From a virus (lineage: Duplodnaviria; Heunggongvirae; Uroviricota; Caudoviricetes), in the IMG/VR virus record IMGVR_UViG_3300046534_001355: DNA of 21,933 nucleotides; one strand, written 5' to 3'. Position numbers and translations under genes: made by a program. Below are positions 17,467-18,814 of this stretch, one piece after another. Positions within the stretch are counted from its first letter, which is position 1, and every line of letters begins with the position of its first letter. The notes under the pieces were generated by a model. The model had not been told where the DNA came from and did not search any database. It saw only the letters and a list, made by a program, of their open reading frames with translations.

Positions 17467-18814
17467 TTATATTTTTTCGCAAAAAGAAGAATAATCTCCA
17501 CAGATTAAGCAACTGACAAGCTCTCTTTGTGCGGGATATATTTGGGACTCATTTACAAGCCCTGTATATGGTAAGAGTGATTTATGTATCAAGTTAAAAA
17601 CGTGAGACTTCTCATTAGTTGTTAAACTTTTTTTGGATAATATGGATGCCAAGTGCTCAACGCAAATAACCAGCCATGCATTAAACATTTTTACTATTTC
17701 TGCTTCATTTTTATTGCTTGATAAGATATAAATCAAACCTGTTTGTAATACCAAGGCTCTTTGTTTAATGGAGAAAGATGTTTTAGATAGATGTGGTTCT
17801 TCATGGCGATTCAGAGAGTAGTAGCCCTTTCTTGCCAGTATAGATATCGTATTAGCTACAGTTAGGCTCTGGCAAGAAAAAAGCATATCCTCATAGACTG
17901 AAATTGATGGGTTAAATAAGATGTTGTTATTGATTAGCAACTCTCTTTTAAAGAACTTGAAGATTTTTAATGATCTAAAAAGATGGTTTTTTATAATATC
18001 TGCTTTATTCGTGTCTGCCTTAAATGGGCGTACAGGAACCCCTCTCCCTGTAGAGGAAACCTGCTTGAAATATACAATGTCACTATTGTTTTTATAAGCC
18101 ATCTGAATACCATCGGACAGTAAGTCAGAGTGAATGGAATCATCAGAGTCTAAGAAAAACACATAGCGACCTTTTGCGGATTTTATTCCCTCATTTCGCG
18201 GCGCTGATGCATTCCCTGAACCAACTGCTCTACGGATAATACGATAATTTATTTCTCTCGAAATGTTATATTCAATGGCGGCAATGCTACTGTCAGTGGA
18301 ACAGTCATTAAAGATTTAATGCATTCGAGAATAAGGGTTTCTCGGTTGTGAACCGGAATAACAACTGAGACATCAAAGGGATAAATAGAATTAATTTCAT
18401 TAATTACCGTTGTGATTTTTAGAAGAGAAGTATGCAGGGCTGTTGTTAAAACAGCAGAAGATGAAATGTTTTCTTTTTTAGTGTTGCCTTTTATAGTATA
18501 ATAAGGGCAATTATTTCGTAGTACAAAATCCACATTCACACCTGGCTGGCTGGCTGGCTGGCTGGCTGGCTGGCTGGCTGGCTGGCTGGCTGGCTGGCTG
18601 GCTGGCTGGCTGGCTGGCTGGCTGGCTGGCTGGCTGGCTGGCTGGCTGGCTGGCTGGCTGTGAAATCTAATGCAAATTTCACCCCTTTATATTCGAAGTC
18701 AATAACGAAGCAGTTTTCATTGTATAGCCATGTTTTTTTGATGTGGTCACGTAGTGTTGTTTTCTCAAAGAATCCAACTATATTTTCAGACATGGCAGTG
18801 ATATCAGTTTTCAT
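17467..18814 (-). pseudogene. GT2-family glycosyltransferase, frameshifted, with 5' CCAG tetranucleotide repeat tract (candidate phase-variable gene)
   Basis: Three ORF fragments on the minus strand: leader + (ASQP)n (18536-18814), DVSVVIPVHNRETLILECIKSL (18249-18539), and ...DCSTDSS...SGNASAPRNEGIKSAKGRYVFFLDSDD (17467-18162 frame, open upstream to about 18315). These are canonical GT-A/GT2 motifs split across two frames. Confidence 0.65.
18542..18660. repeat. Tetranucleotide simple-sequence repeat (CTGG)x29 plus partial unit (CCAG/AGCC on the coding minus strand)
   Basis: 119 nt of uninterrupted CTGG units read directly; translated as (ASQP)n in the leader frame and stop-free in all three frames of the coding strand. 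Confidence 0.97.

Follow-up and report, generated by a model that had tools for sequence, protein, structure and literature searches.

A predicted phase-variable prophage glycosyltransferase gene of the Escherichia coli B lineage is probably inactivated by a 46-bp deletion

Introduction

Why does a glycosyltransferase gene carried by a tailed phage occupy two reading frames? The question is raised by the IMG/VR virus record IMGVR_UViG_3300046534_001355, a 21,933-nucleotide stretch of DNA that was analysed as a whole and is referred to here as the window. A first-pass annotation had described a family 2 glycosyltransferase (GT2) at 17467-18539 whose motifs are divided between two frames, had placed a +/-1 frameshift near 18305-18325 and had offered a pseudogene, a sequencing error or a second switching point as explanations. 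The two-frame arrangement is real: the frames are seen on the minus strand and both pieces match the Pfam family PF00535 (Glycos_transf_2). The window copy is most probably one phase-variable prophage glycosyltransferase gene killed by a 46-bp deletion and is then a plain pseudogene. In its relatives, the gene appears to be switched by a (CCAG)n tract in its 5' part, which is probably what the annotation implied as the "first" switching point. With the gene disrupted, two of the three original options remain, a pseudogene, which we favour, and a sequencing or assembly error.

Results

The two frames belong to one gene and are separated by a 46-bp gap

The list of open reading frames (ORFs) places three in succession on the minus strand between the tail-fibre gene H (14397-17255, plus strand) and the sheath gene FI (annotated start ~19857, end 21047, plus strand).

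18814-18536, minus strand: ORF 1, 92 aa, which runs into the CCAG tract and has its stop at 18536
18539-18249, minus strand: ORF 2, 96 aa, carrying the beta1 motif cited in the first-pass annotation
17467-18162, minus strand: ORF 3, in a frame open upstream to 18315, carrying the remaining motifs cited there

The minus-strand interval 18814..17467 is one glycosyltransferase gene, a low-GC moron between H and FI with a GC content of 33-39% compared with 50-59% in the flanking phage genes. It is longer than first described, starting at an ATG at 18814 and continuing through (CCAG)29, and is made up of the following parts.

18661..18814, minus strand: 5' module, from the ATG at 18814 to the tract, encoding MKTDITAMSENIVGFFEKTTLRDHIKKTWLYNENCFVIDFEYKGVKFALDFT(A), the first half of an accessory beta domain
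18542..18660, minus strand: repeat tract, (CCAG)29 within the ORF, read as (SQPA)n
18249..18539, minus strand: fragment A, encoding the second half of the accessory domain, a linker helix and GT-A beta1 (VSVVIPVHNRE...ECIKSL)
18307..18309, minus strand: deletion junction, losing the codons of NNQTIDKNCFEVIFI and the first base of the next Asp codon
18289, minus strand: private substitution, AGG->AGT on the gene strand (Arg->Ser), 18 bp from the junction
17467..18315, minus strand: fragment B, encoding the rest of GT-A (DCSTD..., FFLDSDD) and the C-terminal helical domain, with its stop at 17467-17469

On the minus strand, the frame of fragment A reads ...DVSVVIPVHNRETLILECIKSL MTVPLTVALPPLNITFREK before it terminates; its 3' end consists of 19 out-of-frame codons followed by a stop at 18249-18251. 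The frame of fragment B, preceded by a TAA at 18316-18318, is open from 18315 and begins IFNDCSTDSSIAAIEYNISREINYRIIRRAVGSGNASAPRNEGIKSAKGRYVFFLDSDD..., its first in-frame start codon being a GTG at 18162 that gives a 231-aa product. Intact relatives encode single proteins of 370-485 aa that are collinear with both window fragments, and the 5' module is fused in frame to the glycosyltransferase in strains ATCC 11303, B-DolR and CPww7. The proposal that the fragments belong to one GT2 gene is borne out by this collinearity.

Alignment to five intact alleles, and then to two, revealed that the window lacks AACAATCAGACTATAGATAAAAATTGTTTTGAAGTTATTTTCATTG (gene strand) in a clean 46-bp gap between 18307 and 18309 whose exact position is ambiguous by one A. 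The loss amounts to 15 codons plus 1 nt (NNQTIDKNCFEVIFI+D). It is this loss, and not a +/-1 event, that changes the frame between fragments A and B and brings ECIKSL almost directly before DCSTD instead of at the usual spacing. In the intact alleles the extra 46 bp are present and a single continuous protein is encoded.

The gap removes part of the catalytic core

PF00535 matches the intact protein without interruption at residues 139-271 (profile positions 1-130). Fragment A covers only profile positions 1-21 (expect value, E, 0.0026) and fragment B positions 32-131 (E 4.6e-14), leaving positions 22-31 missing from the window and the flanking parts in different frames. Both fragments do align to the GT2 family, and their intact form resembles the wall teichoic acid transferases TarS and TarP; together, however, they do not amount to the canonical GT-A domain that had been proposed. 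The deleted peptide holds six columns that are invariant in the family alignment (N135, Q137, F144, E145, F148 and D150). In an AlphaFold model of an intact allele with a predicted local distance difference test (pLDDT) score of 89.9, it takes up the last part of helix 127-135 and the whole of strand 144-150. The beta1 motif of the VVIPVHN type is present in the window, in fragment A, and a DxD-type motif is present as FFLDSDD in fragment B, with D203, S204, D205 and D206 invariant in the family alignment. All intact alleles have beta2 and the acidic (D)DxSxD motif contiguous with beta1 in one frame, which is not the case in the window.

In the GT-A fold, the second strand and the acidic residue that follows it form part of the nucleotide-binding site. 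Since the lost strand and Asp belong to this site, we infer that the window gene is inactive, the loss of beta2 being expected to abolish transferase activity. This conclusion takes the deletion to be real rather than an assembly fault and the loss of beta2 to be inactivating.

A (CCAG)n tract probably switches the intact gene ON and OFF

On the gene strand, the tract at 18542-18660 comprises 29.8 copies at 100% match (Tandem Repeats Finder). Relatives have between 5 and 59 CCAG units, and only values of n that are multiples of 3 leave the ORF continuous. Continuous ORFs are found in CPww7 (18 units), ATCC 11303 (21 units) and B-DolR (45 units), and broken ones in REL606 (7 units), AS19 (10 units), Z0117EC0062 (20 units), the window (29 units), B-DidR (34 units), B (35 units) and a strain deposited as "C" (59 units). 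In the in-frame alleles of ATCC 11303, B-DolR and CPww7, a single ORF begins at the upstream ATG, crosses the tract and continues into the transferase, and RefSeq lists single proteins of 453, 485 and 454 aa, respectively. Strains B, B-DidR and B-DolR are recorded as one stock and its derivatives, and their differing values of n indicate that the tract changes on a laboratory time scale. Clones of the long-term evolution experiment (LTEE) changed from (CCAG)7 to 8, 9, 11, 12, 13, 14 and 21 units at REL606 position 2103918 (GenomeDiff files, PMC5918244 supplement). This position falls inside the CCAG tract, which the LTEE supplements mention solely in mutation lists. In the part of the relevant literature that was covered, we found no account of the tract as a phase-variable glycosyltransferase.

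The gene combines the features of a repeat contingency gene, namely a repeat within the ORF whose unit is not a multiple of 3, a polymorphic n and ORF continuity that depends on n. Judged from these sequence comparisons, the (CCAG)n tract would be a true ON/OFF switch of the gene. The window copy would likewise be OFF because its n of 29 is not divisible by 3. Changing the tract length in silico never yields more than 193 aa from the window sequence; with the 46 bp restored, n = 30 gives 465 aa and n = 27 gives 461 aa.

In the mechanism that we propose, slipped-strand changes of n would turn translation ON at multiples of 3 and OFF at all other values. The window copy would additionally have lost 46 bp of its catalytic core, with beta2 and the first Asp of the Asp-rich motif gone and the frame shifted. 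An OFF length of n = 29 together with the deletion would leave it doubly inactive, a dead allele and not a regulatory device. Slippage cannot restore lost unique sequence and the deletion would consequently be irreversible, making the allele one that no tract length rescues.

The window belongs to the E. coli B lineage and its deletion is rare

Over its full length, the 21.9-kb window is ~100% ("100.0%") identical to chromosomes of the E. coli B lineage. Full-length matches were found in ATCC 11303, B, drug-selected B derivatives, AS19, REL606 and the strain deposited as "C". By this identity and its gene content, the window is the defective P2-like prophage that this lineage carries. Strain BL21(DE3), which has no prophage between yegQ and yegR, was ruled out as the source. 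A whole-window alignment to ATCC 11303 shows exactly four differences in 21.9 kb.

15824: G->C, causing W476C in tail-fibre H
18289: C->A, Arg->Ser in DCSTD(R/S)S
18307/18308: 46-bp gap
CCAG tract: +8 repeat units

REL606 differs from the window by four further C/T substitutions and a 2-bp insertion. The G->C change at 15824 that causes W476C is private to the window, being present in neither ATCC 11303 nor REL606, both aligned over the whole window.

A match to some part of the 2.5-kb region occurs in 30 of 5426 complete E. coli genomes. With a 92-nt probe placed over the junction, the match in 29 of these ends at the junction, and no genome spans it; all 29 other complete E. coli genomes with the gene retain the 46 bp and are single-frame there. 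A junction 31-mer had no match in IMG/VR, in a set of one genome per prokaryotic species or in JGI metagenomes, and the undeleted sequence was found in five IMG/VR contigs. Deposited phage genomes gave no DNA match. In exact look-ups against a collection of ~15 billion proteins, the 96- and 94-aa products of fragment A were absent and the 231-aa product of fragment B was on record.

A deletion accounts best for the junction

A second switch or programmed recoding near 18307, in which ribosomal frameshifting or reversible slippage would join the frames into a functional enzyme, is conceivable given that one hypermutable switch is already present in the gene and that the junction sequence, TTTAATG, is A/T-rich. 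No repeat, homopolymer, slippery sequence or stable hairpin was found at the junction, no direct repeats of at least 7 nt flank the deletion (the microhomology is 1 nt only) and the local DNA fold is no better than that of shuffled sequences (z = 0.33). The two-frame layout is conserved in 0 of 29 relatives, and even perfect frameshifting would leave the protein 15 residues short, with six invariant positions and strand beta2 among the losses. Given the absence of repeats and of a hairpin at the site and the undeleted, single-frame state of all 29 relatives, the suggestion of a second switching point is set aside, and recoding here is highly improbable. We regard it as equally improbable that a split enzyme functions, either by assembly of fragments A and B or through the activity of fragment B alone (231 aa from GTG 18162). 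Gene finders do call the 231-aa product and it is on record, but a product translated from this GTG begins at FFLDSDD, and both beta1-beta3 and the half of the fold that binds the nucleotide are missing from it. For fragment A, no start codon lies in frame with the upstream ATG when n is 29, and the split arrangement occurs in no relative.

The more serious alternative to a plain pseudogene is an artefact, in which the source has the intact 46 bp and the deletion, perhaps with the nearby single-nucleotide polymorphism (SNP), arose during assembly or consensus calling. Several observations weigh against a genuine deletion. The junction was found in no other public sequence scanned, and the private SNP 18 bp from it, together with another in H, could mark an odd single-assembly stretch or a mutagenised laboratory lineage. 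The GenBank protein GCX88715.1 is exactly the 231-aa product of fragment B, and all four inspected contigs with this product are undeleted. Two of these four contigs begin with junk sequence, which we take to be sequencing adapter, and two have stop-creating substitutions near the contig start; adapter junk and near-start stops probably account for the short 231-aa gene calls in undeleted contigs. In addition, a perfect repeat of 119 bp, at which draft assemblies break and contigs end, lies 234 bp from the region. On the other side, two substitutions and a change by whole repeat units are all that separates the rest of the 21.9 kb from ATCC 11303, homopolymer and other small-indel errors being absent, and the gap is not flanked by any repeated k-mer at which a graph assembly could collapse. 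Long-read consensus errors do not typically take the form of a clean 46-bp loss. We therefore consider an artefact unlikely, if appreciably less so than the two functional alternatives, and a pseudogene produced by a real 46-bp deletion the probable explanation.

Stop-creating substitutions in the post-repeat part of the gene were seen in two Logan contigs (TGC->TGA and GAA->TAA). They lie near contig ends (about 50 and about 8) and may be errors and not independent inactivations.

The intact protein is predicted to be a TarS/TarP-like glycosyltransferase

From sequence and model comparisons, the intact gene is predicted to encode a cytoplasmic GT2/GT-A glycosyltransferase of 430-490 aa, of the TarS/TarP/RmlT type and with an N-terminal beta domain. 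Among solved structures, TarS (E 4e-38) and TarP (E 2e-30) are closest to the intact allele by sequence (phmmer). The top Foldseek matches of the intact-allele model are TarP, TarS and Listeria RmlT (E ~1e-26), with target-normalised TM-scores of 0.80-0.86 for TarP and truncated TarS. The similarity of sequence and fold spans the GT-A core and the next helical region, which is the acceptor-binding one. In PHROGs, the protein falls into family 22088, of unknown function, with weaker matches to families labelled "GtrB-like O-antigen conversion", and NCBIfam returns sub-threshold generic GT2 matches only. A protein search of deposited phages matched only Staphylococcus and Listeria phage records and one unclassified fecal-sample phage, the annotated Staphylococcus phage matches being tarP genes.

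In the AlphaFold model, the N-terminal ~110 residues form a helix, five strands and a long helix. The 5' module contributes helix 5-17 and strands 25-31, 35-42 and 45-53, and strand 45-53 is joined to strand 58-64 by a loop that the repeat encodes. The equivalent of this N-terminal module is C-terminal in Campylobacter and Psychrobacter homologues.

Homologues lie in capsule loci and in P22-like prophages

In Campylobacter coli, the homologue belongs to the kps capsule locus, where its neighbours encode a cytidylyltransferase-reductase resembling TarI/J and a polymerase resembling TagF. E. coli AF16 (NZ_OZ547176) carries a repeat-free homologue in region 2 of a group-2-type capsule locus (locus extract 7732-14159), where it adjoins TagF-like and TarI/J-like genes and a 102-nt fragment of a tail-fibre-assembly gene. 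This arrangement hints at exchange between capsule loci and phages. At the loop position of the repeat, the AF16 copy has ACCGCCAACCAGACAG, which may be a precursor of the repeat. At megablast sensitivity, the AF16-type capsule cluster was found in 2 of 5426 genomes and in none of the carriers of the prophage gene.

Diverged alleles, whose transferase parts are only 55-64% identical, are found in convergent orientation to P22-like tailspike genes. Draft contigs were read for the two alleles (24 and 7, respectively); the six contigs inspected all start a short distance downstream of the loop position. In complete genomes, the diverged alleles share the 5' module with the window gene, and their loop position is occupied by (CAGC)70 or (CAGC)47 (GMF054; strain C, CP029371). 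The shared module and repeat indicate a repeat cassette common to P2-like and P22-like prophages, and strain "C" holds both a P2-like and a P22-like copy. Tail-fibre H (Phage_tail_fib and Peptidase_S74) shows weak similarity in its central domain to the P22-like tailspikes beside the diverged alleles (E 2e-6 and 1e-3) and clearer similarity in its C-terminal chaperone domain (E 1e-16 and 2e-12), which is compatible with a co-travelling pair of receptor-binding protein and transferase.

The intact family could represent a contingency cassette, driven by a repeat and not described before, that temperate phages of E. coli carry and in which a TarP-like enzyme stochastically modifies a surface glycan containing polyol-phosphate. 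We put this forward tentatively, as a possibility somewhat short of an even chance, on the basis of ~55%-identical alleles with the same module and tract that are always next to a tail fibre or tailspike.

Other features of the window

The prophage contains int, cox, a replication gene, an ABC-three-component defence cluster and truncated portal and tail-tube genes. Its later part holds the baseplate genes V, W, J and I followed by H, and ogrK starts just beyond the window end. The ABC-three-component cluster (6111-9800) follows the replication gene and consists of three genes, including one for an AAA ATPase. Its middle gene is intact in the window and in ATCC 11303 and is split in REL606 by the 2-bp insertion at ~7468. 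The prophage defects lie at 10116-11030 and 21060-21853: portal and virion-morphogenesis genes are reduced to fragments, and the tail-tube gene, its C-terminal end missing, adjoins a fragment of gene D, with one 259-aa ORF (21060-21839) spanning that junction. An Rfam scan of the whole window gave no match.

Upstream of the transferase, 18815-19860 is ~1 kb of AT-rich DNA (29-46% GC) without a convincing gene. The following candidate lies within it.

19051..19079, minus strand: candidate sigma-70 promoter, TTCACA-17 nt-TATAAT, 11/12 consensus matches, ~240 nt upstream of the ATG

Promoter-like sites in the region are no more numerous than expected from shuffled sequence, and the promoter is a putative one identified by consensus scan alone. 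A scan of 17200-19900 returned eight terminator-like hairpins compared with 1.9 expected, all eight within 19099-19751. H and the transferase gene converge, and the space between them holds a perfect, GC-rich hairpin of 11 bp at 17398-17427 (GCCCCTCACCC / GGGTGAGGGGC), followed on the transferase strand by an A8 run. This hairpin is not a canonical terminator in either direction, and the hairpin scan did not report it.

Discussion

For annotators, the two ORFs are probably the remains of one gene, and neither recoding nor a second switch is needed to explain them. E. coli is usually said to phase-vary by invertible elements and Dam methylation, not by long repeats. Here, a tetranucleotide tract of 20-240 bp, whose length shifts in laboratory evolution, would gate a TarP-like transferase encoded by prophages of the laboratory lineage in widest use. 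The gene may offer a tractable model of repeat-mediated switching and of phage-borne glycan modification in E. coli. There is also a practical warning, as the CCAG tract breaks short-read assemblies and yields recurrent "mutations" in resequencing data. If the tentative cassette proposal is true, stochastic glycan modification would alter phage susceptibility and antigenicity, and the window copy would be a member of the family that has decayed in a laboratory lineage with no further need of the gene.

The position of the gene recalls known lysogenic-conversion morons. As first noted, it occupies the slot in which P2 carries fun(Z), in the same orientation, between the tail-fibre genes and FI and on the opposite strand (P2 annotation). 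Homology to Fun(Z) was not detected (BLASTP E 0.41) and the two genes are unrelated. Low GC content and a place next to tail-fibre genes are shared with fun(Z) and with gtrABC of P22-like phages. The gtrABC genes of P22-like phages encode a membrane Gtr system, whereas the window family is predicted from solved structures and the model to be a soluble TarS/TarP-like GT2.

The lic2A, lgtC and lex2 genes of Haemophilus influenzae are tetranucleotide-repeat contingency genes, and Campylobacter capsule and lipooligosaccharide transferases are switched by homopolymers. The window gene resembles the H. influenzae genes in having a long perfect 4-nt repeat in the 5' part of its ORF, with one of three phases ON, and in an n that varies between near-isogenic strains. 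It differs from them in that the repeat sits on P2-like and P22-like prophages of E. coli and encodes a loop in a folded domain and not a dispensable leader. In a recent review, the E. coli examples of phase variation are invertible elements and Dam methylation, not repeats.

By its enzyme, the window family is closest to the GT2 proteins that glycosylate poly(ribitol-phosphate) wall teichoic acid, namely TarS and the prophage-encoded TarP of Staphylococcus aureus and RmlT of Listeria monocytogenes. Like TarP, the window gene is carried by a temperate phage, and the C. coli and AF16 homologues sit beside CDP-ribitol-synthase-like and TagF-like genes. The E. coli host, however, is Gram-negative and has no teichoic acid. 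The accessory domain of the window family is a ~110-aa N-terminal beta/alpha module, in contrast to the C-terminal domains of TarS and TarP. Finally, expression of the window family, unlike that of TarS, TarP and RmlT, would be gated by a tetranucleotide repeat within the ORF, and the window copy is deleted in its catalytic core.

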